64,000 nucleotides of DNA from Phyllobates terribilis (taxonomy: Eukaryota), in NCBI RefSeq assembly GCF_046119375.1, contig NW_027362764.1, forward strand, positions 428,668,001-428,732,000. Direction: 5' to 3'. The translations under genes were made by a program, and so were the position numbers. Positions 5,650 to 61,131 of this stretch are shown in pieces (positions within the stretch are counted from its first letter, which is position 1; each line of letters opens with the position of its first letter). Below the pieces are notes generated by a model, which searched no databases, was not told where the DNA came from, and saw nothing but the letters and a program-made list of their open reading frames with translations.

Positions 5650-7278
5650 CAGTACAGACCAAAAGTTTGGACACACCTTCTCATTTAAAGATTTTTCTGT
5701 ATTTTCATGACTATGAAAATTGTACATTCACACTGAAGGCATCAAAACTATGAATTAAAACATGCGGAATTATATACTTAACAAAAAAGTGTGAAACAAC
5801 TGAAAATATGTCTTATATTTTAGGTTCTTCAAATTAGCCACCTTTTGCTTTGATGGCTGCTTTGCACACTCTTGGCATTCTCTTGATGAGCTTCAAGAGG
5901 TAGTCACCGGAAATTGTTTTCACTTCACAGGTGTGCCCTGTCAGGTTTAATAAGTGGGATTTATTGCCTTATAAATGGGGTTGGACCATCAGTTGTGTGG
6001 TGCAGAAGTCTGGTGGATGCACAGCTGATAGTCCTACTGAATAGACAGTTAGAATGTGTATTATGGCAGGAAAAAAGCAGCTAAGTAAAGAAAAAGGAGT
6101 GGCCATCATTAATTTAAGAAATGAAGGTCAGTCAGTTCGAAAAATTGGGAAAACTTTGAAAGTGTCCCCAAGTGCAGTTGCAAAAACCATCAAGCGCTAC
6201 AAAGAAACTGGCTCACATGAGGACCTCCCCAGGAAGGAAAGACCAAGAGTCACCTCTGCTTCTGAGGATAAGTTTATCCGAGTCACCAGCCTCAGAAATC
6301 ACAGGTTAACAGCAGCTCAGATTAGAGACCAGGTCAATGCCACACAGAGTTCTAGCAGCAGACTCATCTCTTCAACAACTGTTAAGAGGAGACTTTGTGC
6401 AGCAGGCCTTCATAGTAAAATAGCTGCTAGGAAACCACAGCTAAGGACAGGCAACAAGCAGAAGAGACTTGTTTGGGCTAAAGAACACAAGGAATGGATA
6501 TTAGACCAGTGGAAATCTGTGCTTTGGTCTGATGAGTCCAAATTTGAGATCTTTGGTTTCAACCACTGTGTCTTTGTGCAACGCAGAAAAGGTGAACGGA
6601 TGGACTCTACATGCCTGGTTCCCACCGTGAAGCACGAAGGAGGAGGTGTGATGGTGTGGGGGTGCTTTGCTGGTGACACTGTTGGGGATTTATTCAAAAT
6701 TGAAGGCATACTGATCCAGCATGATTACCACAGCATCTTGCAGTGGCATGATATTCCATCCAGTTTGCGTTTAGTTGGACCATCATTTAATTTTCAACAT
6801 GACAATGACCCCAAACACACCTCCAGGCTGTGTAAGGGCTATTTGACCAAGAAGGAGAGTGATGGGGTGCTACGCCAAATGACCTGGCCTCCACAGTCAC
6901 CAGACCTGAACCCAATCGAGATGGTTTTTGGTAAGCTGGACTGCAGAGTGAAGGCAAAAGGGCCAACAAGTGCTAAGCATCTCTGGGAACTCCTTCAAGA
7001 TTGTTGGAAGACCATTTCCAGTGACTACCTCTTGAAGCTCATCAAGAGAATGCCAAGAGTGTGCAAAGCATTCATCAAAGCAAAAGGTGGCTACTTTTAA
7101 GAACCTAGAATATAAGACATATTTTCAGTTGTTTTACACTTTTTTGTTAAGTATATAATTCAAAATGTATTAATTCACAGTTTTGATGCCTTCAGTGTGA
7201 ATGTACAATTTCCATAGTCATGAAAATACAGAAAAATCTTTAAATAAGAAGGTGTGTCCAAACTTTTGGTCTGTACTG
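5650..7278 (+). mobile_element. Full-length Tc1/mariner element, DD38E (Intruder-type)
   Basis: TA flanks at 5648-5649 and 7279-7280. TIRs of ~265 bp (5650-5914 / 7014-7278) begin CAGTACAGACCAAAAGTTTGGACACACC. Confidence 0.95.
6054..7100 (+). CDS. DD38E Tc1-like transposase (probable start ATG 6063)
   Basis: 348-aa open ORF with HTH N-terminus, WSDESKF and QHDNDPKH...PDLNPIE; 38 residues counted between the second D and E. The TAA at 7098 looks like a mutated GAA. Confidence 0.9.
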   Translation: MCIMAGKKQLSKEKGVAIINLRNEGQSVRKIGKTLKVSPSAVAKTIKRYKETGSHEDLPRKERPRVTSASEDKFIRVTSLRNHRLTAAQIRDQVNATQSSSSRLISSTTVKRRLCAAGLHSKIAARKPQLRTGNKQKRLVWAKEHKEWILDQWKSVLWSDESKFEIFGFNHCVFVQRRKGERMDSTCLVPTVKHEGGGVMVWGCFAGDTVGDLFKIEGILIQHDYHSILQWHDIPSSLRLVGPSFNFQHDNDPKHTSRLCKGYLTKKESDGVLRQMTWPPQSPDLNPIEMVFGKLDCRVKAKGPTSAKHLWELLQDCWKTISSDYLLKLIKRMPRVCKAFIKAKGGYF

Positions 7279-16373: not shown

Positions 16374-16526
16374 NNNNNNNNNNNNNNNNNNNNNNNNNNN
16401 NNNNNNNNNNNNNNNNNNNNNNNNNNNNNNNNNNNNNNNNNNNNNNNNNNNNNNNNNNNNNNNNNNNNNNNNNNNNNNNNNNNNNNNNNNNNNNNNNNNN
16501 NNNNNNNNNNNNNNNNNNNNNNNNNN
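16374..16526. other. Assembly gap (153 N)
   Basis: Run of N. Confidence 1.
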
Positions 16527-22961: not shown

Positions 22962-24149
22962 TTAACACTGAAACTGATTATCAATCTATCTAAACTGGCT
23001 GTCAAACACTCGGTACATGAGCAAAACGCTCATTCATAGGGTAAAAGTAATTTTAAGCTTACGGAAAGGGAGTCTGTCAAAATGACAATTAAACTGCATA
23101 AAGATTTACATAGGGGACATAGCCCCTACTAAAATAATACCAGGAATACAGTGTGTACGGAAAGTATTCAGACCCCTTTAAATTTTTCACTCTTTGTTTC
23201 ATTGCAGCCATTTGGTAAATTCTAAAAAGTTCATTTTCTTTCTCATTAATGTACACTCTGCACCCCATCTTGACTGAAAAAAAACAGAAATGTAGAAATT
23301 TTTTCAAATTTATTAAAAAAGAAAAACTGAAATATCACATGGTCATAAGTGTAGCATCGGCGTCTCTGCCCCCTGACAGGCAGAGACGCCGTCCCCCTTA
23401 CCGCCGTGCTCCTGGCCCGGCGCCTTCCGGCTCTCCTGCTGCTGCTGCTGCCGGTGCGCGCAGTTTCCAGGGCACTGTGCTTAGGGCGCGCTCGCACTCC
23501 CTCCCTCTTAAAGGGGCCGCGAGCGCCGTCCTAAGGAGTCCCCGGCCAATGGCCGAAGGACTTCTCATATAAAAGACACCTCCTCCAAAATGGAGGTGTC
23601 CGTGCAAAGTTGTAGCTCTGTATTCTAAACTCTGCTTCAGCCCTCAGGTCCTGCTGCTAGTCTGACTACCAGTCCAGTCCGCCAGCCTGACTACCAGTCC
23701 AGTCTGCCAGCCAGACTACCAGTCCAGTTCGCCAGCATGACTACCAGTCCAGTCTGCCAGCCTGACTACCTGTCTCTGCCAGCCAAGTACACTCTCCAGC
23801 CTGACGGTCTGCCTACGGTCCAAACCCGCCAGTCTGTCTATGGGCCAGGCTTGCCTGCCTACCTGGAGAATGTACCCGTTACCTGCCGTGCCTACCAGCC
23901 AGCCTACCCGGAGGCTCCTGCCAGTTACCCATGGTGTCTGCCAGTCCGTCTACCCGGATCACCCGTCAGCCTGCCTGCCGTGCTCATCTGCTGTACCGGT
24001 CAGTCCCTGCCTTCTGACCCCTGGGAGTCATCAGCTCTCATACAAGGACTGGCCCAGAGTAGCACCTGGTTCCTCTGCTCGGTCCTTCCCTGGTTCATGG
24101 AGTCGATTGAGACACAGTGCGACCTTGGTCAGTCCGAGTTGATACCTAG

Positions 24150-25751
24150 TGTTATGCACACGCCCGGGCTAAGCGGCGTGTGCGTGTGATTGGTAGTGAT
24201 TCCACTGGACCGTGCCGGAGAGTGTATGCCTGGAGGGGCGTGACTAAGTATTCACCCGATCCGACCAGGGTCGCACGACGGCATACGACGCCAGTGCACC
24301 AAGGAGGAACCGAGCAGAGGGACCAGGTGCTACTCCAGGACAGACCCCGGACACGGCTGTTGACCCACACAGGGGAATACAGGAACAGGCTGGTAGGCTG
24401 GCACACAGACTGGAGGGTATAGGCAGGCACGACTGGAATGCAGGCAGGCGGGTATGCAGGCAGGGGGGTAAAGGCAAGCACAGCTAGAGTGCAGACGGGG
24501 AGGCACTAGCAGGTAGGAACACAGGCGGGATAGAACCCAGTACACACCGGGACTCAGGAACAATACAGGCAGGATAGGGCCCAGTACACACTGGGACTCA
24601 GGAACAATACAGGCAGGATAGGGTACAGGCAGGGCAGGACAGGACTGCCGGAGCAGCGGGCAGAAGCAGGGCAGGACAGGACTGCAGGAGCAGCGGGCAG
24701 AAGCAGGGCAGGACAGGACTCTGTTCACACGGAACAGACAGGAAGGGAAAGACAGAGCCAGACACCCACAGGGTACTTGCAGTGAAGTAGCGAGTGGACC
24801 ACAAACTCACAAACGGGAGTACAGAGACAACAGGCAGGAGTTAGGTACGAGTTCAGACTCTGCAGAAAAAGGAAGGGAACGGACATAGAGGAAAAACAGG
24901 TAAAGGATAGGAGAGAGTTCAGACTGGAACTGAGTGTACAGAGGAGACCGACACTGCAGCGGAATACAGGAGCGGGTCTGGGAATACTGCCCCCAGAGAG
25001 GCGGAACGAACAGGCAAGGAGCGTGTTCAGACAGGACAGACAAGATACAGGAGCGGGTCTAGGTAATCGGCCCCTAGAAGGCGGGAGGAACAGGCTAGGA
25101 GCGTGTTCAGACAGGACAGACAAGATACACAGAAAGGACTCAGTTCTGACACGGGAACTAATACCGCAAAGCAGGAGACATACAGGACACAGTTCAGACA
25201 CGGGAGCTGACACCGCAAGGCAGGAGAAATACAGGACTTAGTTCAGACACGGGAACTAATACCGAAAAGCAGGAGACATACAGGACACAGTTCAGACACG
25301 GGAGCTGACACCGCAAGGCAGGAGAAATACAGGACTTAGTTCAGACACGGGAACTAATACCGTAAAGCAGGAGACATACAGGACACAGTTCAGACAGGCC
25401 TGGAAATACAGCCTCCAGGAAAGGCGGACAGGGAAACAGGAACGGACCTGGCACCTTCAGAGTGCAAGCACACACTGAAAGAAACACTTATGCTCAGGCA
25501 GGGATAGAAGGGAGCTGCTGAGCTATATACCAAGTGACAGACAGCAATAGGCTGAGGACGCACAAGGGGTGTGACCCACAGCAGGTACAAAAGACAGGAA
25601 GTGATCGGGCGCCGCCCTTAAGCAGCAGAGACAGACACAAACAGACAGCATGGAGGGAAGCCAGAGAGACATTCTGGACAGGAGATCAAGTGCGCGCTCC
25701 TGCACAGTGGGAGATGGACCACTATGCAAGGACGCCGCCAGGTATGTTACA
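24150..25751 (-). repeat. LTR copy 1 (3' LTR) of the tandem element
   Basis: 1602 bp, TGTTATG...TGTTACA, with internal tandem repeats in R/U5. Confidence 0.95.
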
Positions 25752-27160
25752 GTACCTCCCCCCTTACGCCCCCTCTTCTTCAGGCCTGCCAGAATCTTCC
25801 GCAGGGAATTCGAGGACCAGTCGTTCACTGGGTTGGAGGGGGACAGAGACTTGAGGGTAATCTCTGCTTCGAGGTACATCTTGTCAAGCTCACAGGAAAA
25901 AATAGACGGGTTATCAGGTACATAATGAGGAAAAGTCACTGTCTCTTTGTTATCTGGTGGTATCCCGGAGGATTCAGGAAACAACTGGAGGTCCTCCGCC
26001 GGGTCAGAAGAGTACAGAGGCTCAGAGAAAACATCTGCTTCAGAGTACACTAGGTCGGACTCACTGGAGGAAGCCGGCGAGGTATCAGGTACAGGAAATA
26101 GGAAAGTCTCTGTCCATTCACCACCAGGTGGCACCCCGAAGGGTTCTAAACACAACTGGAGGTCCTCCGCCTGGTCGGAGGGGTGTAGAGACTCGGGAGT
26201 AACTTCTGCTTCGGAGAACACTAGGTCGGACTCACTGGAGGAAGCAGGCGAGGTATCAGGTACAGGAAATAGGAAAGTCTCTGTCCATTCACCACCAGGT
26301 GGCACCCCGAAGGGTTCTAAACACAACTGGAGGTCCTCCGCCTGGTCGGAGGGGTGTAGAGACTCGGGAGTAACTTCTGCTTCGGAGAACACTAGGTCGG
26401 ACTCACTGGAGGAAGCAGGCGAGGTATCGGGTACCGAGTATAGGAAAGTCTCTGTCCATTCACCACCAGGTGGCACCCCGAAGGGTTCTGAACACAACTG
26501 GAGGTCCTCCGCCTGGTCGGAGGGGTGTAGAGACTCGGGAGTAACCTCTGCTTCGGAGTACACTAGGTTGGACTCACTGGACGAAGCGAGCGAGGTATCA
26601 GGTACAGAGTATAGGAGAGTCTCTGTCCTTTCGTTACCAGGTAGCACCCCGAAGGGTTCAGGAGGTCTCAGGGAGGACAGACCCAGGCGTGACTGCTTGC
26701 CTCTAAGTCTAGCACGTCTGGACTGCCTCTTGAGGTTGGGAGAAGTATTCCGGAAAGCGTAGTCACCCTGTGAGGATTCTGGGCGGGCAGTAGTCTCATT
26801 GGGCTGGAGAACTATTACGCTACCCACACACATTACCCATTGGGGCTGCTCCGGGATATTGGGAAGTGAAGCTTCAGCAGGAGCCTCCGGGTTAGGATCA
26901 TCGAAGACCATTAGAAAGGCCACCAGGAAGGCCATTAGGTCCCGGAGGATCGGATCCTGTGTCTCATATAGGGGGTTGATCCATTCCAAGGCATCCCCCG
27001 CCAGGTAAGACATCATAAAGGCCACTTTAGCCCAATCGGAAGGAAAATAAAGAGGGTAGGCCTTAAAGTGTAGCATGCATTGCTCCACAAATGCACGACA
27101 CTGTCTTGGATCCCCATAGTAACGTGGCGGATCCGCAGGAACGAGAGCTGATAGATCCAT
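25523..27160 (-). CDS. Gag N-terminal domain fused to a 57-aa acidic tandem repeat (copy 1), 545 aa
   Basis: The N-terminal ~90 aa (PPRYYGDPRQCRAFVEQCMLHF...AKVAFMMSYLAGDALEWINPL...FDDP) align by eye with the window's own gag (PPRFGGHPSQARGFINQCTLHF...AKVAFIMSHLTGEALAGLNPL). About 5 repeat units follow, with no PR/RT/IN. Expression is unknown. Confidence 0.75.
   Translation of the reverse strand: MDLSALVPADPPRYYGDPRQCRAFVEQCMLHFKAYPLYFPSDWAKVAFMMSYLAGDALEWINPLYETQDPILRDLMAFLVAFLMVFDDPNPEAPAEASLPNIPEQPQWVMCVGSVIVLQPNETTARPESSQGDYAFRNTSPNLKRQSRRARLRGKQSRLGLSSLRPPEPFGVLPGNERTETLLYSVPDTSLASSSESNLVYSEAEVTPESLHPSDQAEDLQLCSEPFGVPPGGEWTETFLYSVPDTSPASSSESDLVFSEAEVTPESLHPSDQAEDLQLCLEPFGVPPGGEWTETFLFPVPDTSPASSSESDLVFSEAEVTPESLHPSDQAEDLQLCLEPFGVPPGGEWTETFLFPVPDTSPASSSESDLVYSEADVFSEPLYSSDPAEDLQLFPESSGIPPDNKETVTFPHYVPDNPSIFSCELDKMYLEAEITLKSLSPSNPVNDWSSNSLRKILAGLKKRGRKGGGTVTYLAASLHSGPSPTVQERALDLLSRMSLWLPSMLSVCVCLCCLRAAPDHFLSFVPAVGHTPCASSAYCCLSLGI
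25947..26660 (-). repeat. 171-bp coding tandem repeat (~4.5-5 units); second copy at 29098-29811
   Basis: TCGGAGAACA recurs at 26211 and 26382 (171 bp). Unit: EPFGVPPGGEWTETFLYSVPDTSPASSSESDLVFSEAEVTPESLHPSDQAEDLQLCL. Confidence 0.95.
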
Positions 27161-27300
27161 CTGGACGGTGCGTAATTCGCCTGGAACTCAGCTAAGGGAA
27201 AAAAAATTTATTTATTTATTTTAATGCATATATTCGCTGGAAAAAACTTCTCAAAGAGTGAAGGCCGTGGGGCTCAACGGGAACCATGGCCTGAGCATGC

Positions 27301-28902
27301 TGTTATGCACACGCCCGGGCTAAGCGGCGTGTGCGTGTGATTGGTAGTGATTCCACTGGACCGTGCCGGAGAGTGTATGCCTGGAGGGGCGTGACTAAGT
27401 ATTCACCCGATCCGACCAGGGTCGCACGACGGCATACGACGCCAGTGCACCAAGGAGGAACCGAGCAGAGGGACCAGGTGCTACTCCAGGACAGACCCCG
27501 GACACGGCTGTTGACCCACACAGGGGAATACAGGAACAGGCTGGTAGGCTGGCACACAGACTGGAGGGTATAGGCAGGCACGACTGGAATGCAGGCAGGC
27601 GGGTATGCAGGCAGGGGGGTAAAGGCAAGCACAGCTAGAGTGCAGACGGGGAGGCACTAGCAGGTAGGAACACAGGCGGGATAGAACCCAGTACACACCG
27701 GGACTCAGGAACAATACAGGCAGGATAGGGCCCAGTACACACTGGGACTCAGGAACAATACAGGCAGGATAGGGTACAGGCAGGGCAGGACAGGACTGCC
27801 GGAGCAGCGGGCAGAAGCAGGGCAGGACAGGACTGCAGGAGCAGCGGGCAGAAGCAGGGCAGGACAGGACTCTGTTCACACGGAACAGACAGGAAGGGAA
27901 AGACAGAGCCAGACACCCACAGGGTACTTGCAGTGAAGTAGCGAGTGGACCACAAACTCACAAACGGGAGTACAGAGACAACAGGCAGGAGTTAGGTACG
28001 AGTTCAGACTCTGCAGAAAAAGGAAGGGAACGGACATAGAGGAAAAACAGGTAAAGGATAGGAGAGAGTTCAGACTGGAACTGAGTGTACAGAGGAGACC
28101 GACACTGCAGCGGAATACAGGAGCGGGTCTGGGAATACTGCCCCCAGAGAGGCGGAACGAACAGGCAAGGAGCGTGTTCAGACAGGACAGACAAGATACA
28201 GGAGCGGGTCTAGGTAATCGGCCCCTAGAAGGCGGGAGGAACAGGCTAGGAGCGTGTTCAGACAGGACAGACAAGATACACAGAAAGGACTCAGTTCTGA
28301 CACGGGAACTAATACCGCAAAGCAGGAGACATACAGGACACAGTTCAGACACGGGAGCTGACACCGCAAGGCAGGAGAAATACAGGACTTAGTTCAGACA
28401 CGGGAACTAATACCGAAAAGCAGGAGACATACAGGACACAGTTCAGACACGGGAGCTGACACCGCAAGGCAGGAGAAATACAGGACTTAGTTCAGACACG
28501 GGAACTAATACCGTAAAGCAGGAGACATACAGGACACAGTTCAGACAGGCCTGGAAATACAGCCTCCAGGAAAGGCGGACAGGGAAACAGGAACGGACCT
28601 GGCACCTTCAGAGTGCAAGCACACACTGAAAGAAACACTTATGCTCAGGCAGGGATAGAAGGGAGCTGCTGAGCTATATACCAAGTGACAGACAGCAATA
28701 GGCTGAGGACGCACAAGGGGTGTGACCCACAGCAGGTACAAAAGACAGGAAGTGATCGGGCGCCGCCCTTAAGCAGCAGAGACAGACACAAACAGACAGC
28801 ATGGAGGGAAGCCAGAGAGACATTCTGGACAGGAGATCAAGTGCGCGCTCCTGCACAGTGGGAGATGGACCACTATGCAAGGACGCCGCCAGGTATGTTA
28901 CA
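27301..28902 (-). repeat. LTR copy 2 (shared middle LTR)
   Basis: Matches copy 1 at an offset of 3151; all ORF-track translations are identical. Confidence 0.95.
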
Positions 28903-30311
28903 GTACCTCCCCCCTTACGCCCCCTCTTCTTCAGGCCTGCCAGAATCTTCCGCAGGGAATTCGAGGACCAGTCGTTCACTGGGTTGGAGGGGGACAGAGA
29001 CTTGAGGGTAATCTCTGCTTCGAGGTACATCTTGTCAAGCTCACAGGAAAAAATAGACGGGTTATCAGGTACATAATGAGGAAAAGTCACTGTCTCTTTG
29101 TTATCTGGTGGTATCCCGGAGGATTCAGGAAACAACTGGAGGTCCTCCGCCGGGTCAGAAGAGTACAGAGGCTCAGAGAAAACATCTGCTTCAGAGTACA
29201 CTAGGTCGGACTCACTGGAGGAAGCCGGCGAGGTATCAGGTACAGGAAATAGGAAAGTCTCTGTCCATTCACCACCAGGTGGCACCCCGAAGGGTTCTAA
29301 ACACAACTGGAGGTCCTCCGCCTGGTCGGAGGGGTGTAGAGACTCGGGAGTAACTTCTGCTTCGGAGAACACTAGGTCGGACTCACTGGAGGAAGCAGGC
29401 GAGGTATCAGGTACAGGAAATAGGAAAGTCTCTGTCCATTCACCACCAGGTGGCACCCCGAAGGGTTCTAAACACAACTGGAGGTCCTCCGCCTGGTCGG
29501 AGGGGTGTAGAGACTCGGGAGTAACTTCTGCTTCGGAGAACACTAGGTCGGACTCACTGGAGGAAGCAGGCGAGGTATCGGGTACCGAGTATAGGAAAGT
29601 CTCTGTCCATTCACCACCAGGTGGCACCCCGAAGGGTTCTGAACACAACTGGAGGTCCTCCGCCTGGTCGGAGGGGTGTAGAGACTCGGGAGTAACCTCT
29701 GCTTCGGAGTACACTAGGTTGGACTCACTGGACGAAGCGAGCGAGGTATCAGGTACAGAGTATAGGAGAGTCTCTGTCCTTTCGTTACCAGGTAGCACCC
29801 CGAAGGGTTCAGGAGGTCTCAGGGAGGACAGACCCAGGCGTGACTGCTTGCCTCTAAGTCTAGCACGTCTGGACTGCCTCTTGAGGTTGGGAGAAGTATT
29901 CCGGAAAGCGTAGTCACCCTGTGAGGATTCTGGGCGGGCAGTAGTCTCATTGGGCTGGAGAACTATTACGCTACCCACACACATTACCCATTGGGGCTGC
30001 TCCGGGATATTGGGAAGTGAAGCTTCAGCAGGAGCCTCCGGGTTAGGATCATCGAAGACCATTAGAAAGGCCACCAGGAAGGCCATTAGGTCCCGGAGGA
30101 TCGGATCCTGTGTCTCATATAGGGGGTTGATCCATTCCAAGGCATCCCCCGCCAGGTAAGACATCATAAAGGCCACTTTAGCCCAATCGGAAGGAAAATA
30201 AAGAGGGTAGGCCTTAAAGTGTAGCATGCATTGCTCCACAAATGCACGACACTGTCTTGGATCCCCATAGTAACGTGGCGGATCCGCAGGAACGAGAGCT
30301 GATAGATCCAT
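28674..30311 (-). CDS. Gag N-terminal domain fused to a 57-aa acidic tandem repeat (copy 2), 545 aa
   Basis: Translation is identical to 25523-27160. Confidence 0.75.
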   Translation of the reverse strand: MDLSALVPADPPRYYGDPRQCRAFVEQCMLHFKAYPLYFPSDWAKVAFMMSYLAGDALEWINPLYETQDPILRDLMAFLVAFLMVFDDPNPEAPAEASLPNIPEQPQWVMCVGSVIVLQPNETTARPESSQGDYAFRNTSPNLKRQSRRARLRGKQSRLGLSSLRPPEPFGVLPGNERTETLLYSVPDTSLASSSESNLVYSEAEVTPESLHPSDQAEDLQLCSEPFGVPPGGEWTETFLYSVPDTSPASSSESDLVFSEAEVTPESLHPSDQAEDLQLCLEPFGVPPGGEWTETFLFPVPDTSPASSSESDLVFSEAEVTPESLHPSDQAEDLQLCLEPFGVPPGGEWTETFLFPVPDTSPASSSESDLVYSEADVFSEPLYSSDPAEDLQLFPESSGIPPDNKETVTFPHYVPDNPSIFSCELDKMYLEAEITLKSLSPSNPVNDWSSNSLRKILAGLKKRGRKGGGTVTYLAASLHSGPSPTVQERALDLLSRMSLWLPSMLSVCVCLCCLRAAPDHFLSFVPAVGHTPCASSAYCCLSLGI

Positions 30312-30451: not shown

Positions 30452-32053
30452 TGTTATGCACACGCCCGGGCTAAGCGGCGTGTGCGTGTGATTGGTAGTG
30501 ATTCCACTGGACCGTGCCGGAGAGTGTATGCCTGGAGGGGCGTGACTAAGTATTCACCCGATCCGACCAGGGTCGCACGACGGCATACGACGCCAGTGCA
30601 CCAAGGAGGAACCGAGCAGAGGGACCAGGTGCTACTCCAGGACAGACCCCGGACACGGCTGTTGACCCACACAGGGGAATACAGGAACAGGCTGGTAGGC
30701 TGGCACACAGACTGGAGGGTATAGGCAGGCACGACTGGAATGCAGGCAGGCGGGTATGCAGGCAGGGGGGTAAAGGCAAGCACAGCTAGAGTGCAGACGG
30801 GGAGGCACTAGCAGGTAGGAACACAGGCGGGATAGAACCCAGTACACACCGGGACTCAGGAACAATACAGGCAGGATAGGGCCCAGTACACACTGGGACT
30901 CAGGAACAATACAGGCAGGATAGGGTACAGGCAGGGCAGGACAGGACTGCCGGAGCAGCGGGCAGAAGCAGGGCAGGACAGGACTGCAGGAGCAGCGGGC
31001 AGAAGCAGGGCAGGACAGGACTCTGTTCACACGGAACAGACAGGAAGGGAAAGACAGAGCCAGACACCCACAGGGTACTTGCAGTGAAGTAGCGAGTGGA
31101 CCACAAACTCACAAACGGGAGTACAGAGACAACAGGCAGGAGTTAGGTACGAGTTCAGACTCTGCAGAAAAAGGAAGGGAACGGACATAGAGGAAAAACA
31201 GGTAAAGGATAGGAGAGAGTTCAGACTGGAACTGAGTGTACAGAGGAGACCGACACTGCAGCGGAATACAGGAGCGGGTCTGGGAATACTGCCCCCAGAG
31301 AGGCGGAACGAACAGGCAAGGAGCGTGTTCAGACAGGACAGACAAGATACAGGAGCGGGTCTAGGTAATCGGCCCCTAGAAGGCGGGAGGAACAGGCTAG
31401 GAGCGTGTTCAGACAGGACAGACAAGATACACAGAAAGGACTCAGTTCTGACACGGGAACTAATACCGCAAAGCAGGAGACATACAGGACACAGTTCAGA
31501 CACGGGAGCTGACACCGCAAGGCAGGAGAAATACAGGACTTAGTTCAGACACGGGAACTAATACCGAAAAGCAGGAGACATATAGGACACAGTTCAGACA
31601 CGGGAGCTGACACCGCAAGGCAGGAGAAATACAGGACTTAGTTCAGACACGGGAACTAATACCGTAAAGCAGGAGACATACAGGACACAGTTCAGACAGG
31701 CCTGGAAATACAGCCTCCAGGAAAGGCGGACAGGGAAACAGGAACGGACCTGGCACCTTCAGAGTGCAAGCACACACTGAAAGAAACACTTATGCTCAGG
31801 CAGGGATAGAAGGGAGCTGCTGAGCTATATACCAAGTGACAGACAGCAATAGGCTGAGGACGCACAAGGGGTGTGACCCACAGCAGGTACAAAAGACAGG
31901 AAGTGATCGGGCGCCGCCCTTAAGCAGCAGAGACAGACACAAACAGACAGCATGGAGGGAAGCCAGAGAGACATTCTGGACAGGAGATCAAGTGCGCGCT
32001 CCTGCACAGTGGGAGATGGACCACTATGCAAGGACGCCGCCAGGTATGTTACA
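30452..32053 (-). repeat. LTR copy 3 (5' LTR)
   Basis: 1602 bp; TATATA at 31826-31831 (minus). One visible difference from copy 1 (T31583 vs C25281). Confidence 0.95.
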
Positions 32054-32315
32054 CCTAGTTACGCCCCTCTGGTCCCTCCTTGCACCGCAGCACAGAGTTT
32101 CCACCACCCGGATCCGTAACAATAAGTATTGAGACCCTTTGCTCAGACACTCATATTTAAGTCACATGCTGTCCATTTCCTTGTGATCCTCCTTGAGATG
32201 GTTCTACTCCTTCATTGGAGTCCAGCTGTGTTTAATTAAATTGATAGAACTTGATTTGGAAAGGCACACACATGTCTATTTAAGACCTCACAGCTCACAG
32301 TGCATGTCAGACCAA

Positions 32316-35954: not shown

Positions 35955-37524
35955 CAGTCATGGCCAAAAGTATTGAGAATGAGACAAATAGTAATTTTTT
36001 CAAAGTTTACTGCTTCATTTTTTGTAATGGCAATTTGCATATACTCCTGAATGTCAAAGAGTGATCAGCTTAACAGCAATTACTGTACTTGCAAAGTCAA
36101 TATTTGCCCAGAAAATGAACTTTAACCCCCAAAACACATTTCAACATCATTGCAGTCCTGCCTTAAAAGGAGCAGCTAACATCGTTTTAGTGATTGATCC
36201 ATTAACACAGGTGTGGGTGTTGATGAGGACAGGGCTGGCGATCAATCAGTCATGATTAAGTAAGAATGACATCACTGGACACTTTAAAAGGAGGCTGGTT
36301 CTTGGTATCATTGTTTCTCTTCAGTTAACCATGGTTATCTCTAAAGAAACACGTGCAGCCATCATTGCACTGCACAAAAATGGCCTAACAGGGAAGAGTA
36401 TCGCAGCTACAAAGATTGCACCTCAATCAACAATCTATCGCATCATCAAGAACTTCAAGGAGAGAGCTTCCATTGTTGTCAAAAAGGCTCCAGGGCGCCC
36501 AAGAAAGACCAGCAAGCGCCAGGACCGTATCTTAAAACTGTTTCAGCTGCGGGATCGGACTACCAGCAGTGCCGAGCTTGCTCAGGAATGGCAGCAGGCT
36601 GGTGTGAGTGCTTCTGCACGCACTGTGAGGCGGAGACTCTTTGAGCAAGGGCTGGTTTCAAGGAGGGCAGCAAAGAAGCCACTTCTCTCCAGAAAAAACA
36701 TCAGGGACCGACTGATATTCTGCAAAAGGTACAGGGAGTGGACTGCTGAGGACTGGGGCAAAGTCATTTTCTCCGATGAATCCCCTTTTCGATTGTTTGG
36801 GACATCTGGAAAACAGCTTATTCGGAGAAGAAGAGGTGAGCGCTACCACCAGTCTTGTCTCATGCCAACTGTAAAGCATCCTGAAACCATTCATGTGTGG
36901 GGTTGCTTCTCAGCCAAGGGAATCGGCTCACTCACAGTCTTGCCTAAAAACACAGCCATGAATAAAGAATGGTACCAGAATGTCCTCCAAGAGCAACTTC
37001 TCCCAACCGTCCAAGAGCAGTTTGGCGCCCAACAATGCCTTTTCCAGCTTGATGGAGCACCTTGCCATAAAGCAAAGGTGATAACTAAATGGCTCATGGA
37101 ACAAAACATAGAGATTTGGGGTCCATGGCCTGGAAACTCCCCAGATCTTAATCCCATTGAGAACTTGTGGTCAATCATCAAGAGACGGGAGGACAAGCAA
37201 AAACCAACAAATTCTGGCAAAATGCAAGCATTGATTATGCAAGAATGGACTGCTATCAGTCAGGATTTGGTCCAAAAGTTGATTGAGAGCATGCCAGGGA
37301 GAATTACAGAGGTCTTGAAGAAGAAGGGGCAACACTGCAAATATTGACTTGCTGCATTAACTCATTCTAACTGTCAATATAACCTATTGGTACTCATAAT
37401 ATGATTGCAATTATATTTCTGTATGTGATATAAACATCAGACAAACACTAATAAAAACCAGAGGCCAGCAGATCATGTGAAAATATAATTTTGGTGTCAT
37501 TGTCAAAACTTTTGGCCATGACTG
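35955..37524 (+). mobile_element. Full-length Tc1/mariner element, DD35E (Traveler-type)
   Basis: TA flanks at 35953-35954 and 37525-37526; short TIR CAGTCATGGCCAAAAGT(A/T)TTGA(G/C)AATGA; length 1570 bp. Confidence 0.95.
36331..37347 (+). CDS. Intact DD35E transposase, 338 aa
   Basis: Open ORF with GRPR, VIFSDESPF and QLDGAPCH...NSPDLNPIE; 35 residues between the second D and E. Confidence 0.92.
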   Translation: MVISKETRAAIIALHKNGLTGKSIAATKIAPQSTIYRIIKNFKERASIVVKKAPGRPRKTSKRQDRILKLFQLRDRTTSSAELAQEWQQAGVSASARTVRRRLFEQGLVSRRAAKKPLLSRKNIRDRLIFCKRYREWTAEDWGKVIFSDESPFRLFGTSGKQLIRRRRGERYHQSCLMPTVKHPETIHVWGCFSAKGIGSLTVLPKNTAMNKEWYQNVLQEQLLPTVQEQFGAQQCLFQLDGAPCHKAKVITKWLMEQNIEIWGPWPGNSPDLNPIENLWSIIKRREDKQKPTNSGKMQALIMQEWTAISQDLVQKLIESMPGRITEVLKKKGQHCKY

Positions 37525-45147: not shown

Positions 45148-45939
45148 TGTAACGGGTCAGAGAGGTGGAACCTCTGAGCAACGATACAAAGGGGCAGTCC
45201 TTGTAAGGAAGCGGGTGGCACCCAGGGTAGGCGGGCAGGTAGTCACGGCAAGTGACGGGGACAGTCTCTTGGTAGAAGGGCAGGAGGTCACGGCAAGTAA
45301 TGGGGACAGTCTCTGGGTAGAAGGGCAGGAGGTCACGGCAAGTGATGGGGACAGTCTCTTGACAGGCGGGTGGTCACGGCAAGTGACGGCTAAGCCTCCA
45401 GATAGGCTAACAGGCAGGTAAGAGTCTCTGAACAGGCAGGTGGTCACAGCACGTGACGGCAGAGCCTCCAGGTAGGCTAGCAGGCAGGTAGCAGATGAGC
45501 ACTCCCAGGTGAGCGGGCAATCAGATCCATAGACAGACTGGCAGGGCTGGTAGGCAGACTGTCGGACCACAGGAATGCAAGTAGATAGACAAGTATCAGG
45601 CAGGTATCAAGCAGGAATCTGGCAGGTAACTGGCAGGTATCTGGTAACGGGACCTGAGGGCTGAAGCAGAGTGATAGGCTATGCAACAACATTGCTCGGG
45701 CACCTCCATTTTGGAGGAGGTGCCTTATATATAGTGAGGTCCTCCGGCCATTGGCCGGGGACTCCTTAGGACGGCGCGCGCGGCCCCTTTAAGAGAGGGG
45801 GAGCGCGCGCGCCCTAAGCACAATGGCCGGGAAGCAGCGCGCGCTGCCAGCAGAGCGGGAGGAAGACGCCGGGCACGGAGTGGAGAGGTGAAGGGAACAG
45901 CGTCCCTGCCTAGCAGGAGGCAGGGACGCCGACGCTACA
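45148..45939 (-). repeat. 3' LTR (792 bp)
   Basis: Direct repeat of 50153-51573 lacking most 99-bp units. Confidence 0.95.
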
Positions 45940-48900
45940 GTACCCCCCCTTTAGGCCCCCCCTTTTTTAGGCCAGACAGAAATTTATCAAGGATGAGAGG
46001 GGCATGGATGTTCTCCCGGGGCTCCCACGTTCTCTCCTCAGGACCAAACCCCTTCCAATCCACTAGAAAAAAGGTCTTTCCTCTTACCCTTTTGGTGGCC
46101 AGAATGTTCTCTACCTCAAACTCGTTTTCAGCGGAAACCGGAGCAGGAGGCATACCTGTAGACTTGGCAAAAGAGCTAAGTACCACTGGTTTTGAGTAGA
46201 GATACATGGAAGGAGTTAGGGATCCGCAAGTTGGCCGGGAGTTTCAATTTATAGGCCACTGGGTTGATTTGTTTGATAACTTCCAGTGGGCCGATGAACC
46301 GAGGCCCTAACTTGTAGGAAGGAATCTTGAGCCGGACATACTTGGACGAGAGCCAGACTTTATCTCCTGGACAGAATTGTGGAGGATCCAGGCGTTTTTT
46401 GTCAGCGTGTCTTTTCATCCGCTCGGACGACTGAAGGAGTGCGGATCGGGTACTCTCCCAAATGGAGGAGAATTTGCTAACGGGAGATTCCGCAGCCGGA
46501 TTGTCCACTGAGGTTGAGACGGGAAATGGGATCCGAGGATGCTGACCGAAGACTACAAAAAACGGGGATTTGGAGGAAGATTCGCTCTCGTGATGATTGT
46601 AAGAGAACCCGGCCCATGGTAGGAGATCCACCCAGTCCGAATGGTGGGCATTAACGAAGTGCCAGAGGTAACTGGTCAGAATCTGATTGATCCGCTCCAC
46701 TTGACCATTGGACTGTGGGTGGTAAGCGGAGGAGAAGTCCAAGGTGACGTCCAGCAGCTTACATGTGGCTCTCCAGAAGCGTGAGGTGAACTGAACCCCA
46801 CGATCCGACATGATGTGGAGGGGCAGGCCATGGAAACGGAAGATGTGGCAGATAAAGTCTTTAGCCAGCTCGGGTGCAGACGGGAGGCCCGGCAGGGGAA
46901 TGAAGTGAGCCATCTTGGAAAAGCGGTCAGCGACCACCCAAATGACCGTACAACTGGCAGAGACAGGGAGATACGTTATAAAGTCCATAGCTATATGCTG
47001 CCATGGGGCAGCAGGTACTGGAAGAGGAAGGAGGCGACCGGCTGGCAGATGTCTCGGAACCTTGTTGCGGGCGCAGGACACACAGGCTGAAACAAAGTCT
47101 ATTACGTCCTTGTGCAGGGTAGGCCACCAGTAATGCCGGGTAATAAGCTGGAGGGTCTTTTTCTGACCGGCGTGGCCAGCTAGCTTAGACGAGTGACCCC
47201 AGTGTAGGATCTTCTTCCAATCAGGTACTGTTACGAACGTCTTACCGGGAGGGAGACGATTTAGATTCACGGGGGCCACCTGCATTACTCTAGCGGGATC
47301 AATGATGTGCTTAGGCTCCTCCCCTAGATCAGATGCCAGGAAGGATCGGGAAAAGGCGTCAGCTTTGATGTATTAGTCTGCCGGGCGAAAATGAAGAACG
47401 AAATCAAAGCGGGCAAAAAACAAGGACCCCCGGGCTTGGCGCGGGTTAAGTCTCTGGGCGCTCTGGAGGTAAGCCAAGATCTTGTGGTCCGTGTAAATAA
47501 TTACTGGGTGAAGAGCCCCCTCGAGCAGGTAACGCCATTCCTCCAGTGCCAGCTTAATGGCCAATAATTCTCGGTCTCCTATAGAATAATTGAGCTCAGG
47601 AGGGGAGAAGAGTTTGGAGAAGAAGCCGCAAGTTACCATTCTTCCGGAAGACGACTTTTGGGTAAGTACCGCTCCGGCTCCAGAGGAGGAGGCGTCCACC
47701 TCCAGGAAGAATTGTTTGTTGCCGTCCGGATGATGCAGCACCGGGGCGGAAGTGAAAGCCTGTTTTAAGGAAAGAAAGGCTTCCTCTGCTTCGGGCGGCC
47801 ATTCTCTGGGATTAGTGCCCTTATGGGTGAGCGCAGAGATTGGGGCAGTCCGGGAAGAGAAGTGCGGTATGAAGAGGCGGTAGTAGTTGGCGAAGCCCAG
47901 GAACCGCTGAATAGCCTTCAACCCCTCTGGTCGGGGCCACTTCTGGATGGCAGACAGCTTCTCAGGATCCATTCGTTGGCCGGTCTGAGAGATTATGTAG
48001 CCCAAGAATGGAAGCGAGGTCTGCTCAAAGAGGCACTTCTCATATTTAGCGTAGAGGTGGTTCTGCCTGAGCCTGAGCAGGACCTGACGAACATCCCTCC
48101 GGTGAGTGAGAAGATCCGGGGAGAAGACCAAGATGTCGTCCAGGTACACCACTACGCAGGAGTAGAGAAGGTCCCAGAAGATGTCATTGACCAACTCTTG
48201 AAAGACGGCGGGAGCATTACAGAGACCGAAGGGCATTACCAGGTATTCATAGTGGCCGTCCCGGGTGTTGAATGTCGTCTTCCATTCATCCCCCTGACGG
48301 ATAGGGACCAGGTTATACGCCCCACGGAGGTCCAGCTTGGTGAAGATTCTAGACCCCTCAGACTGTCAAATAATTCCGGAATGAGCGGAAGGGGGTATTT
48401 ATTCTTCACTGTGATCTGGTTAAGGCCTCTATAGTCTATACAGGGACGGAGTGAGCCGTCCTTCTTTTTGACGAAGAAGAAGCCTGCTCCCGCCGGGGAG
48501 GTCGATTTCCGGATAAATCCCCGGGCCAGATTCTCCTCAATATATTCAGACATGGACCGGGTCTCAGCAGCGGACAAAGGGTAAATACGCCCACGGGGAG
48601 GAGTAGCGCCGGGCATCAGGTCGATTGGGCAGTCGTATGGTCTATGAGGGGGTAATGTCTCTGCCTCCTTTTTATTAAAGACGTCCGCATAAGACCAATA
48701 GGGAACCGGAAGACCAGGTAGATTGGCTGGGGTAGGAGAAGGACGGACAGGATGAACGGGAACTAAACAAGTCTTATGGCAGTCCTGTCCCCAGCGAAGG
48801 ACTTCTCCGGTCTGCCAGTCAAGCACGGGTGCATGTTTCTGAAGCCAAGGTAGGCCTAGCAAGAGGGCGTGAGAGAGTCCAGGCAGAACATGAAAGAAGA

Positions 48901-49207
48901 TGCTCTCTGAGTGCAGCATTCCCAACTGCAGGGTTATGGATTCGGTGATGAGTTGGATGGGATGTGGTAAGAGGCCCCCATCTACGGCAGCGACAGATAA
49001 GGGTACAGCTAGAGGTTTGGTGGGAAAGCGGTATTTCTCTACCTGGGACTGAGAAATGAGATTTCCGGCAGCTCCAGAGTCAAGTTGGGCTAGTTCAAAA
49101 TAACAGTTCTCCCCGCAGATGATAGAGACCGACAGCAACAGAGATGGAGAGGGTTTACTCTTTTCTAGGATGACCTCTCTGAGCGATCATAGACACGGGC
49201 GTTTCCC
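45935..49207 (-). pseudogene. pol: pol (protease, RT, RNase H, integrase, chromodomain) with stops and frameshifts
   Basis: Motifs LDSGA, YLDDIL, LEVDASSSGAGAVL, HSSKLAGH..CVSC, IAMDF/SDRG/QVER, GPRFIGP and chromodomain FEVENIL..FLVDWKGFGPEERTWEP. The ORF is broken at ~49188 (TGA), ~48340, 47373 and ~46200. Confidence 0.95.
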
Positions 49208-50139
49208 GACCTCTCCGGGCAGGAACGGATCCGGTGCTCCTTACTGCCACAGTAGAAGCAGCTCCACTAGGCTCGGCGTAACTCTTGACGGGTCTTGACC
49301 ATCTTGGTCTGGTCGACCTGCATAGGCTCGGGTGAGTGCGCCTGGGGAGTAACGAGAGAAGTGACGGGCTTCTGGAAGGTAGGGGCTAGACGTGGAAACC
49401 TCCTCTCACGGGTGACCTCTTTGGCGCGCTCCTGGAACCGGATGTCTATCCGGGTGGCAAGAGTTATTAAGTCGTCGAGAGTGGTAGGAATGTCCCGACC
49501 AGCGAGTTCATATTTAATACGGCCGGACAGACCCTCCCAAAAGACAGACACCAGGGCGTCGTTATCCCAGGCCAGCTCCGAAGCAAGGGTACGGAACCAT
49601 ATGGCATATTGGCCCACGGTGAGATTTCCTTGACGGAGGCGTAGCAGAGATGTTGCGGATGAGGTCTTCCGTCCTGGTTCGTTGAAGACTTTCCGGAAAG
49701 CCGTGAGAAAGGCTGGCAGGTTGGACACCAGGGGGTCTCCTCTCTCCCATAGAGGATTTAGCCCAGCCAGTGCCTCTCCCGTGAGGTGGGACATGATGAA
49801 GGCTACTTTGGCTCGGTTGGTGGAAAACTGGTGTGCCAACAGTTCGAAGTGCAGAGTGCACTGGTTAATGAAGCCCCGTGCCTGGCTGGGATGTCCGCCA
49901 AAACGAGGAGGAGCGGAGAGGCGGGGACCGGGAAGAGATGCCATGGTGCTGATGGGCTGCGGCGGTGCCGGGGTAGTAAGTGTGCGTGTGGAGGCAGCTC
50001 CCGAAGAGGTAGACAATGTGTCCAGGCGGGAGTTAACACTACGCAGAGGACTCAGGATGGACTCCTGTTGGGACCTCTGACGGGAAAGTTCATGACACAA
50101 GTCCGAGAGCGAGGGAGCTTGGGTGCCACCGGGTTCCAT
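49162..50139 (-). pseudogene. gag: gag with a premature TAG (49267-49269) just before the CCHC knuckle
   Basis: 290-aa ORF with PPRFGG..AKVAFIMSHL..LRLRQG..VFWEGL. The same frame continues WSCFYCGSKEHRIRSC (CX2CX4HX4C) after the stop. Confidence 0.92.
49201..49207 (-). promoter_or_regulatory. -1 ribosomal frameshift slippery heptamer G GGA AAC
   Basis: Correctly phased in the gag frame after the CCHC. The -1 frame leads into [13 protein letters not shown]. Same heptamer as PEG10. Confidence 0.75.
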
Positions 50140-50140
50140 G

Positions 50141-50150
50141 GCCCGAGCAA
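50141..50150 (-). promoter_or_regulatory. Self-priming PBS TTGCTCGGGC
   Basis: 2 nt after the 5' LTR; complementary to GCCCGAGCAA (51329-51320), which starts 30 nt after TATATAA (51359). Confidence 0.8.
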
Positions 50151-50152
50151 AC

Positions 50153-51573
50153 TGTAACGGGTCTGGGAGGTGGAACCTCTGAGCAACGATACAAAGGGGC
50201 AGTCCTTGTAAGGAAGCGGGTGGCTCCCAGGGTAGGCGGGCAGGTAGTCACGGCAAGTGACGGGGACAGTCTCTGGGTAGAAGGGCAGGAGGTCACGGCA
50301 AGTGACGGGGACAGTCTCTGGGTAGAAGGGCAGGAGGTCACGGCAAGTGACGGGGACAGTCTCTTGACAGGCGGGTGGTCACGGCAAGTGACGGCTAAGC
50401 CTCCAGATAGGCTAGCAGGCGGGTAGCAGGTGGGCGCTCCCAGGTGAGCGGGCAAGAGTCTCTGGACAGGCAGGTGGCCACAGCAAGTGACGGCAGAGCC
50501 TCCAGGTAGGCTAGCAGGCAGGTAGCAGGCGGATGCTCCCAGGTGAGCGGGTAAGAGTCTCTGGACAGGCAGGTGGTCACAGCACGTGACGGCAGAGCCT
50601 CCAGGTAGGCTAGCAGGCAGGTAGCAGGCGGACGCTCCCAGGTGAGCAGGTAAGATTCTCTGGACAGGCAGGTGATCACAGCACATGACGGCAGAGACTC
50701 CAGGTAGGCTAGCAGGCAGGTAGCAGGCGGACGCTCCCAGGTGAGCGGGTAAGAGTCTCTGGACAGGCAGGTGGTCACAGCACGTGACGGCAGAGCCTCC
50801 AGGTAGGCTAGCAGGCAGGTAGCAGACGGATGCTCCCAGGTGAGCGGGTAAGAGTCTCTGGACAGGCAGGTGGTCACAGCACGTGACGGCAGAGCCTCCA
50901 GGTAGGCTAGCAGGCAGGTAGCAGGCGGACGCTCCCAGGTGAGCGGGTAAGAGTCTCTGGACAGGCAGGTGGTCACAGCACGTGACGGCAGAGCCTCCAG
51001 GTAGGCTAGCAGGCAGGTAGCAGGCGGATGCTCCCAGGTGAGCGGGTAAGAGTCTCTGGACAGGCAGGTGGTCACAGCACGTGACGGCAGAGCCTCCAGG
51101 TAGGCTAGCAGGCAGGTAGCAGATGAGCGCTCCCAAGTGAGCGGACAATCAGATCCATAGACAGACTGGCAGGGCTGGTAGGCAGACTGTCGGACCACAG
51201 GAATGCAAGTAGATAGACAAGTATCAGGCAGGTATCAAGCAGGAATCTGGCAGGTAACTGGCAGGTATCTGGTAACGGGATCTGAGGGCTGAAGCAGAGT
51301 GATAGGCTATGCAACAACATTGCTCGGGCACCTCCATTTTGGAGGAGGTGCCTTATATATGGTGAGGTCCACCGGCCATTGGCCGGGGACTCCTTAGGAC
51401 GGCGCGCGCGGCCCCTTTAAGAGAGGGGGAGCACGCGCGCGCGCACCCTAAGCACAGTGGCTGGGAAGCAGCGCGCGCTGCCAGCAGAGCGGGAGGAAGA
51501 CGCCGGGCACGGAGCGGAGAGGTGAGGGGAACAGCGTCCCAGCCTAGCAGGAGGCAGGGACGCCGACGCTACA
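50153..51573 (-). repeat. 5' LTR (1421 bp) with ~7.5 copies of a 99-bp unit
   Basis: CGGCAGAGCC recurs every 99 bp (50491, 50590, ...). Confidence 0.95.
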
Positions 51574-52774
51574 AGGAGTGGCAAAATCTACAGTTTGGTA
51601 CAGCCTGAGAAAGAAAGAAAGCACTGGTGAACTCATCAATGCAAAAAGACCTGAGCGCACACAGAAGACAACAGTGGTGGATGATCACAGAATCATCTCC
51701 ATGGTGAAGAGAAACCCCTTCACAACAGCCAACTAAGTGAACAACACTCTCCAGGAGGTAGGCGTATCAATATCCAAATCTACCATAAAGAGAAGACTGC
51801 ATGAAAGTAAATACAGATAGTTCACTGCATGGTGCAAGCCACTCATAAGCATCAAGAATAAAATGGCAAGACTGGACTTTGCTAAAAAACATCTAAAAAA
51901 GCCAGCACAGTTCTGGAAGAACATTCTTTGGACAGATGAAACCAAGATCAACCTCTACCTGAATGATGGAAAGAGAAAAGTATGGCGAAGGTGTGCTACA
52001 GCTCATGATCCAAAGCATACCACATCATCTGTAAAACACGGCGGAGGCAGTGTGATGGCTTGGGCATGCATGGCTGCCAGTGGCACTGGGTCACTAGTGT
52101 TTATTGATGATGTGACACAGGACAGAAGCAGCCGAATGAATTCTGATGTATTCAGAGCCATACTGTGTGCTCCGATCCAGCCAAATGCAGCCAAACTGAT
52201 TTGTCATCGTTTCATTTTACAGATGGACAATGACCCAAAACATAAAGCCAAAGCAACCCAGGAGTTTATTAAAGCAAAGAAGTGGAATATTCTTGAATGG
52301 CCAAGTCAGTCACCTGATCTCAACCCAATTGAGCATGCATTTCACTTGTTAAAGACTAAACTTCAGACAGAAAGGCCCACAAACAAACAGCAACTGAAAA
52401 CCACCGCAGTGAAGGCCTGGCAGAGCATCAAAAAGGAGGAAACACAGCATCTGGTGATGTCCATGAGTTCAACACTTCAGGCAGTCATTGCCAACAAAGG
52501 GTTTTCAACCAAGTACTAGAAATGAACATTTTATTTACAATTACTTAATCTGTCCAATTACTTTTGGTCCCTTTAAAAACAGGGTGGCACATGTTAAGGA
52601 GCTGAAACCTAAACCCTTCATCCAATTTTAATGTGGATACCCTCAAATGAAAGCTGAAAGTCTGAACTTCAACTGCATCTGAATTGTTTTGTTTAAAATT
52701 CATTGTGGTAATATCTAGAACCAAAATTAGAAAAATGTTGTCTCTGTCCAAATATATATGGACCTAACTGTATA

Positions 52775-60700: not shown

Positions 60701-61131
60701 AGATGCAACTCCAATCCAGCAGAGGCAGGGGAACACTGTCAATGTTCTGGGACAGTTTTCTGACACCCGCCCAGCTTACAGGCCCTGAGGCGCGGGGTAC
60801 TCACACAAGGAGTGGAAAGTTTCAAAAGATGGTGAGGGAGTACCTTGCCGATCGTACCAGCGTCCTCCGCGATTCCTCTGTGCCTTTTAATTATTGGGTA
60901 TCCAAGCTGGACACTTGGAATGAACTCGCTCTGTACGCCTTGGAGGTCCTGGCCTGCCGTGCTGCTAGCGTGTTATCGGAGCGTGTTTTTAGTGCCGCTG
61001 GGGGAATTATAACTGATAAGCGCACTAGCCTGTCAACTGACAATGCTGACAAGCTGACCCTTATCAACATGAACAAGGGCTGGATTGGGCCAGACTTCTC
61101 ATCACCACCAAATGACAGCAGAGTAACATAA
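57783..61131 (+). pseudogene. hAT transposase pseudogene with BED zinc finger and C-terminal dimerization domain
   Basis: BED motif VWNFF..AICSTC..MIRHMAAKH; HLTTDTWTS; VYDNGSNL..CLAHVLNL; DVPTRWNS; SERVFSAAG. Stops at 59796-59798 and 60027-60029, and frameshifts at ~60370 and ~60700. Confidence 0.92.

Follow-up and report, generated by a model that had tools for sequence, protein, structure and literature searches.

A young, high-copy LTR retrotransposon family in Phyllobates terribilis encodes a constrained capsid N-terminal lobe and no polymerase

The stretch of the Phyllobates terribilis genome analysed here (contig NW_027362764.1 of assembly GCF_046119375.1, positions 428,668,001 to 428,732,000; 64,000 nucleotides in all, hereafter the window) carries on its minus strand a long terminal repeat (LTR) retrotransposon that lacks pol and encodes a single 545-codon open reading frame (ORF), whose recognisable part is the N-terminal lobe (N-lobe) of a Gag capsid. 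This element, which we refer to as the satellite, is organised as three LTRs of 1602 bp each, with TG..CA ends, alternating with two internal regions of 1549 bp in the order LTR-internal-LTR-internal-LTR and bounded by a single target-site duplication (TSD). The initial annotation had described the ORF as present twice; the two ORFs are there and are identical, but they belong to one tandem insertion (three LTRs, one TSD) and not to two. The ORF was confirmed as open over 545 codons on the minus strand, and the intact LTRs, TSD, polypurine tract (PPT) and primer-binding site (PBS) reported around it are all in place, the PBS being of the self-priming type. A unit measures 4,753 bp, and sampled young copies elsewhere in the genome are similar in size or longer. 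Since the 3151-bp period of the array is near-perfect (1 mismatch over 4753 bp), an assembly duplication is possible at this locus; tandem copies also occur at other loci (L097, L121), and 5 of the first 99 gaps among the matches listed are shorter than 5 kb. Tandem arrays of 2-4 LTR-sharing units recur in the half-capsid family (G000:C1 86491986-86504321, 109129384-109133415 and 29113505-29117511; L097). The array in the window was inserted into a solo LTR from a related autonomous-type family (23350-24149 plus 32054-32121; TSD ATAAG). That solo LTR in turn splits a Tc1-like element, giving three nested layers.

The PBS, ATGCTCAGGC, pairs over 10 nt with GCCTGAGCAT, located 30 nt 3' of the TATA box, and this TATA/self-primer motif was found in 35 of the 36 LTRs examined. 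Judged by this pairing, the PBS is of the self-priming type in a Tf1-like layout, with a predicted RNA start. The ORF begins 140 nt past the LTR, crosses the PPT and reaches its stop within the TATA box of the LTR that follows (Table 1).

Table 1 Features of the satellite array (positions in the window)
Feature	Position	Strand	Basis or remark
545-codon ORF, unit 1	25523..27160	-	last 76 codons inside 3' LTR; stop inside TATA box
545-codon ORF, unit 2, identical to unit 1	28674..30311	-	ORF list, alignment
Capsid N-lobe, residues 1-88, DUF4939, purifying selection	26897..27160	-	Pfam, model, dN/dS
Linker, residues 89-166, replacing the deleted capsid C-terminal lobe; ends in gag-tail remnant	26663..26896	-	
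About four acidic 171-nt (57-residue) units; 53 D/E, 3 K/R; probable chimera of RNase H-integrase junction and chromodomain start	25871..26662	-	
Final residues of chromodomain relic, overlapping PPT	25752..25804	-	
23-codon upstream ORF from ancestral gag ATG	27216..27287	-	sequence comparison
Pyrimidine run plus YAG, splice acceptor-like (putative)	27192..27207	-	motif
3' LTR, 1602 bp	24150..25751	-	LTR alignment
Middle LTR, common to both tandem units	27301..28902	-	LTR alignment
5' LTR	30452..32053	-	1 mismatch vs other two LTRs
TSD CCTAG	24145..24149	.	partner copy at 32054-32058
Self-priming PBS ATGCTCAGGC	27289..27298	-	pairing with self-primer
TATA box and self-primer GCCTGAGCAT 30 nt downstream (predicted RNA 5' end)	28641..28680	-	same motif in each LTR

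The sole Pfam match in the ORF is DUF4939 (residues 11-86, E=1.3e-7), with no match to Retrotrans_gag or Ty3_capsid. The proposed similarity to the Gag N-terminus was recovered between residues 11-99 and the full gag of the window (47%), as was the retained pol-terminal motif (LRKILAGLKKRGRKGG matching LDKFLSGLKKGGPKGG). A profile of the capsid C-terminal lobe (C-lobe) matched none of three satellite ORFs, compared with 101 of 150 outside Gag proteins. An AlphaFold model of residues 1-96 forms a five-helix bundle (pLDDT confidence score 78.8) whose best structural matches are the dArc1 capsid (root-mean-square deviation (rmsd) 2.5 over 75 residues) and the Ty3 capsid N-terminal domain (NTD; rmsd 3.8 over 73 residues), with a Z score of 7.6. 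Foldseek returned nothing for the lobe at E<=0.001, the Ty3 capsid NTD ranking first at E=1.3, and a sequence search of the PDB yielded Ty3 Gag only (E=1.1). These structural scores are moderate, and the modelled fold agrees with the sequence evidence for a capsid N-lobe. The full-length single-sequence model is of low confidence (pLDDT 37) and assigns no fold to the tail. Word-based protein searches with the ORF and the lobe gave no hit at E<=0.001; a HMMER search retrieved 1,191 proteins, the best-matching stretch being the lobe in 149 of the best 150, and no outside protein combining lobe and repeat was seen among those 150 (one showed a low-complexity repeat match). An element without the capsid C-lobe and the RNA-binding knuckle cannot be expected to form a shell by itself.

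Copies are numerous in this 10.57 Gb genome: counted as exact-pattern matches, for which reversed-pattern controls gave 0, the young junction 22-mer occurs 4,608 times, the pattern of the window's own subfamily 460 times, that of an older subfamily 1,786 times and the LTR head 21,812 times. Our young sample comprised 40 of the first 41 listed places, of which 39 could be parsed (L102 was mis-windowed and excluded) and 35 had a full LTR pair. Among these 35, the median LTR divergence is 0.16%, with 26 copies at <=0.5%, and 32 are flanked by an exact 5-bp TSD. Old copies have decayed, none of the 19 complete ones sampled retaining an open ORF. The satellite is a high-copy, young, non-autonomous self-priming Ty3-type LTR family; the earlier description of a recently mobile pol-less element is upheld by LTR identity, TSDs and thousands of loci, enzyme segments surviving only as relics.

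The ORF has been kept open in most young copies. From the internal ATG to the PPT it is uninterrupted in 33 of 39 position-ordered copies and in 30 of 30 best-match copies, and its length is a multiple of three in 37 of 39, spread over 14 in-frame length classes; the leader preceding it is spread over all three frames (11/15/13) and has a stop in every case. The pairwise dN/dS of the lobe within 40 young copies is 0.41 (confidence interval (CI) 0.21-0.82), and the net young-old value, calculated against 26 old copies, is 0.33 (0.15-0.66), or 0.37 (0.14-0.90) once CpG columns are removed, the net estimates spanning 0.30-0.37. Pairwise ratios for the relics are 0.89 for the protease, 0.96 for the reverse transcriptase (RT) and 0.71 for the chromodomain, and the last repeat unit reaches 1.15-1.28. 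A maximum-likelihood codon model fitted to the 27 youngest copies gave 0.433 for the lobe (p=0.009 vs 1); under it the linker has a ratio of 2.6 and the last unit one of 1.3. The frequency of variants points the same way: nonsynonymous to synonymous counts in the lobe are 29:33 for variants common to at least 3 copies vs 91:49 for private ones (p=0.02), and, among shared variants, 29:33 in the lobe vs 119:64 outside it (p=0.016), with stops distributed as 0 common to at least 3 copies vs 26 private (p=0.001). Lineage-level amino-acid changes in the lobe moreover avoid the columns conserved across 41 outside Gag proteins (p=0.02; controls flat). Between young and old subfamilies, both of which lack the C-lobe, the N-lobe has diverged by ~18%, and the constraint has lasted ~0.3-0.4 substitutions per site since that lobe was lost. 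Overall, the capsid N-lobe is under purifying selection (dN/dS 0.30-0.43), with ORF and frame retained; stops at neutral rates and a dN/dS of about 1, the outcome that the initial annotation had set against its own proposal, were not found for the N-lobe.

The satellite stands at the end of a graded series in the same genome. Full gag-pol elements make up its first stage; L081, L091 and L098 represent a second, which joins whole Gag, protease and RT start to a chromodomain, the enzymes in between being missing; and in L158, L093 and L085 the C-lobe is deleted. An older pol-less family (L081, L091, L098, L196, L198, L200) carries whole Gag together with protease, RT-start and chromodomain relics in an internal region of ~1.9 kb. 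It is the apparent ancestor of the half-capsid clade, and every sampled copy of it has decayed. Older subfamilies hold relics of the gag tail, zinc knuckle, protease, RT start and chromodomain in one frame, as in L087, where a 626-codon frame matches gag residues 33-245, pol 1-219 (E=7e-20) and the chromodomain (E=7.5e-9). Young subfamilies have lost the protease relic and amplified the 57-codon unit 2-6 times, and the chromodomain relic, with E=7.5e-9 in the old subfamily, is reduced to 17-19 residues in the window copy. In a tree of the lobe, all 24 rows lacking the capsid C-terminal domain (CTD) form one clade vs 11 CTD-bearing rows (99/96; midpoint root). CTD-bearing relatives with a similar lobe comprise 5 old matches that are only 64-67% identical over the lobe, and a window-type lobe tract was found in none of them by exact patterns, which would miss diverged donors.

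The acidic repeat had been regarded as novel, a view that does not hold for its origin: relics and intermediates trace it toward pol. At the DNA level the repeat has counterparts in L085, where the segment is duplicated, in L158, which has one copy of it, and in the Gag-protease forms. The window unit matches a segment of L198, and that segment matches pol 622-671 (RNase H end plus integrase linker), with 0 of 500 shuffles scoring as well in each case; a direct comparison of the window unit with pol was not significant (85 of 500 shuffles; profile likewise). Because of this transitive homology through a chain of intermediates, we read the repeat as amplified pol debris, probably composed of the RNase H-integrase junction and the chromodomain start. 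An origin from the RT start, an early guess, was dropped.

A chromodomain-PPT-LTR pattern occurs at 50 places, and of the 25 examined, 24 have integrase-end sequence and 6 are stop-free in the part covered. All 25 share the LTR termini and the TATA/self-primer layout, many also a 100-nt U5 segment (71-84%), and none of these 25 of 50 candidates is an autonomous element with the satellite's LTR body. A helper class exists in the genome, and we infer that the enzymes are supplied by chromodomain-bearing autonomous relatives within it. The window itself contains, at 45150-51570 on the minus strand, a full-length chromodomain gag-pol element with unequal LTRs (a 99-bp array lies in its 5' LTR); a premature stop ends its gag, and its pol is spread over several frames.

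The leader shows how the ORF could be reached. All 39 young copies have a short stop-terminated ORF opened by the ancestral gag ATG just past the PBS, and all 39 also have the internal ATG of the main ORF, with the acceptor-like pyrimidine-YAG upstream. A single donor-like GTGAG(T) lies at LTR position 942 (27961) in most young LTRs. Together, these putative donor and acceptor sites could excise the PBS and the upstream ORF. A spliced joint at the acceptor-like site was absent from the contigs of guessed or unknown type that cover the element, a result uninformative on transcription or splicing. Near-identical pieces of the ORF are present in sequence runs under two organism labels, in which LTR depth greatly exceeds internal depth. 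Translation would start at the conserved internal ATG, via either re-initiation after the upstream ORF or splicing.

What, then, might a selected half-capsid do? Our preferred reading, which we hold tentatively and at somewhat less than an even chance, is that the N-lobe docks onto the shell of a helper Gag by low-level co-assembly, so that the satellite's own RNA is preferentially packaged and copied, the tail acting perhaps as a tether or as RNA protection. RTL8 binds the N-lobe of PEG10, enters PEG10 particles at a low level and lowers their yield (PMC11684626; here and below, published systems are compared as the cited passages of their sources describe them). By analogy with that pair, the satellite lobe would contact helper Gag NTD to NTD. 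Changes shared by amplifying lineages are constrained and single insertions decay; intact lobes therefore aided the multiplication of their own copies, and the benefit is therefore required in cis. Purifying selection on element proteins has been tied to cis-preference (PMC13558583). Such a benefit could arise while a ribosome, at work on the long disordered tail, keeps the RNA tethered, and the stop-free tail would be kept for tethering or for avoiding nonsense-mediated decay and not for its amino-acid sequence. A more specific version, possible although we lean against it, is a 'boarding pass' that works in cis in a vertebrate satellite: a long, disposable acidic tail ties the N-lobe to the RNA that encodes it, and when the lobe joins helper capsids the RNA is pulled in as well. 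Genes of the RTL8/LDOC1 type could then stem from truncated forms on which selection had acted in mobile satellites prior to any domestication.

Several observations weigh against docking in cis. The ORF protein has no recognisable RNA-binding knuckle, and because RTL8 incorporation reduces particle yield, the satellite would itself be hurt. The predicted RNA leader is 1.2-1.9 kb long and holds 2-11 upstream ATGs in addition to the stop-terminated upstream ORF. Many of the length changes in the ORF are in-register exchanges between repeats, which keep the frame automatically, and a stop-free tail on a single lineage has a chance probability of 0.08-0.49. As for the lobe, its low ratio within young copies owes to a high dS rather than a low dN; removing codons 19-51 raises the net ratio to 0.60 (0.22-1.60) and significance is lost; the linker on the deep branch is also below 1 (0.41-0.57, with a CI that includes 1), making its contrast with the lobe less sharp there; and since CTD-less subfamilies have exchanged tracts, leaving the lobe a mosaic, substitution counts are not independent events.

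An alternative that we regard as unlikely but worth carrying places selection on translation or RNA fate instead of docking: a frame open as far as the 3' LTR averts nonsense-mediated decay, and a folded lobe keeps the product harmless or stable. It would account for a tail whose dN/dS is ~1 and which nonetheless shows no shared stop, for a frame that stays open right up to the TATA box, close to the predicted end of the RNA, and for the presence of at least 5 relic segments in a single frame in the older subfamily. By itself, however, it leaves unexplained both the amino-acid constraint on the lobe and its bias toward family-conserved columns, and the stop-terminated upstream ORF found in every one of the 39 young copies also runs counter to it.

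Less likely still is an inhibitor acting in trans in the manner of RTL8, in which the half-capsid would disable the capsids of helpers or competitors and so hold down copy number, with the host or the family as beneficiary. The satellite lacks the C-lobe, RTL8, built from the same domain, reduces PEG10 particle release (PMC11684626), and restriction by truncated Gag is known in yeast, albeit by the other lobe (PMC12530519). Against this, the copy that encodes an inhibitor gains nothing, the family reached thousands of copies, and constraint falls on changes shared by amplifying lineages while inserted copies decay, none of the 19 old ones being open and 26 stops being private. Interference with helper capsids, which had been put forward for this element, is hard to select along transposing lineages when it acts in trans, and a benefit in cis fits better.

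We consider it improbable, and already disfavoured, that the ORF is a neutral relic in copies too young to have decayed, with a low dN/dS that is inherited or a recombination artefact. Most copies are indeed very young, the lobe is a mosaic and one sub-test is non-significant; yet young and old lobes differ by ~18% with the C-lobe missing in both and a net ratio of 0.30-0.37, the adjacent leader freely took frameshifts and stops, and a close CTD-bearing donor was not found with exact patterns. Least probable of all is a role in which the lobe has a host protein as its partner, much as the Arc N-lobe binds peptides, and guides the complex of RNA and protein to an assembly site or away from silencing: Arc lobes are among the fold matches and constraint held for ~0.3-0.4 substitutions per site past C-lobe loss, but fold likeness shows no function, the Z score lies in the range of common helical arrangements and the partner is only putative.

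Plant TR-GAG elements are mobile, carry one Gag-related ORF and are mobilised by an autonomous partner (PMC4350172), and RLG_Quinta and RLG_Sabrina_SA are partner elements that contribute Gag (PMC11302176, PMC9744471). Like TR-GAG and RLG_Quinta, the satellite has LTRs, PBS, PPT, a 5-bp TSD and one Gag-related ORF in the absence of pol, and it shares with TR-GAG a single ORF free of protease, RT, RNase H or integrase domains, degenerate relics of these persisting only in older subfamilies. It departs from TR-GAG in lacking the C-lobe and knuckle of what is, in those elements, a Gag precursor thought to build particles, in its unit size (4,753 bp compared with <4 kb), in its animal host and in self-priming. 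With the self-priming chromoviruses of the Tf1/sushi group (PMC4600332) it has in common a PBS able to pair with the predicted 5' end of the RNA, and it has related autonomous elements in the same genome; of a chromodomain it carries a relic at the 3' end. Unlike them, it lacks RT, RNase H and integrase as well as an intact protease. Xenopus 1A11 and Xretpos, which are expressed in embryos, are likewise amphibian pol-less LTR elements with one ORF, Gag-like in 1A11 (PMC4585706); compared by description only, they differ in having tens of ORF copies and a mobility thought lost.

The suggested likeness to RTL8 and LDOC1 holds at the level of the domain (DUF4939; PMC10516033, PMC11684626): these mammalian SIRH/RTL genes also consist of the N-lobe only, descend from Ty3/sushi-type elements and have a constrained lobe. 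They are fixed, low-copy, non-mobile host genes, unlike the satellite with its thousands of mobile copies, relic tail of 380-460 residues and decaying old copies. The further idea of such a gene caught before domestication survives as an analogy only, given the decay of the old copies sampled, of which 0 of 19 have an open ORF. The parallel drawn with Ty1 p22 fails, as it concerns the opposite half of the capsid: p22 is a C-terminal lobe made by an autonomous copia-type element, and Drt2 is a fixed gene (PMC12530519). Like the satellite protein, Ty1 p22/p18 and Drt2 comprise a single capsid lobe, and theirs can contact full Gag; unlike them, the satellite keeps the N-terminal and not the C-terminal lobe. 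A literature search at abstract level found no mobile N-lobe-only element, although Repbase and Dfam libraries or supplements could hold the family.

Gag-only satellites are already known but were assumed to give a whole capsid. Loss of the C-lobe once, selection on the N-lobe and spread to thousands of copies suggest an undescribed route of capsid-assembly parasitism, and they offer a testable origin for mammalian half-capsid genes in which truncation preceded domestication instead of following it. The series from full gag-pol through Gag-protease to half-capsid in one genome allows each step to be dated and compared.

The remainder of the window holds other mobile DNA. ORFs at 6054-7100, 36331-37347 and 51863-52519, which we take to encode Tc1/mariner-like transposases, include two of near full length. 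A 153-base stretch of N at 16374-16526 is unrelated to the satellite, and 57783-61131 contains a hAT-like transposase with a BED zinc finger (Pfam), split across several frames.

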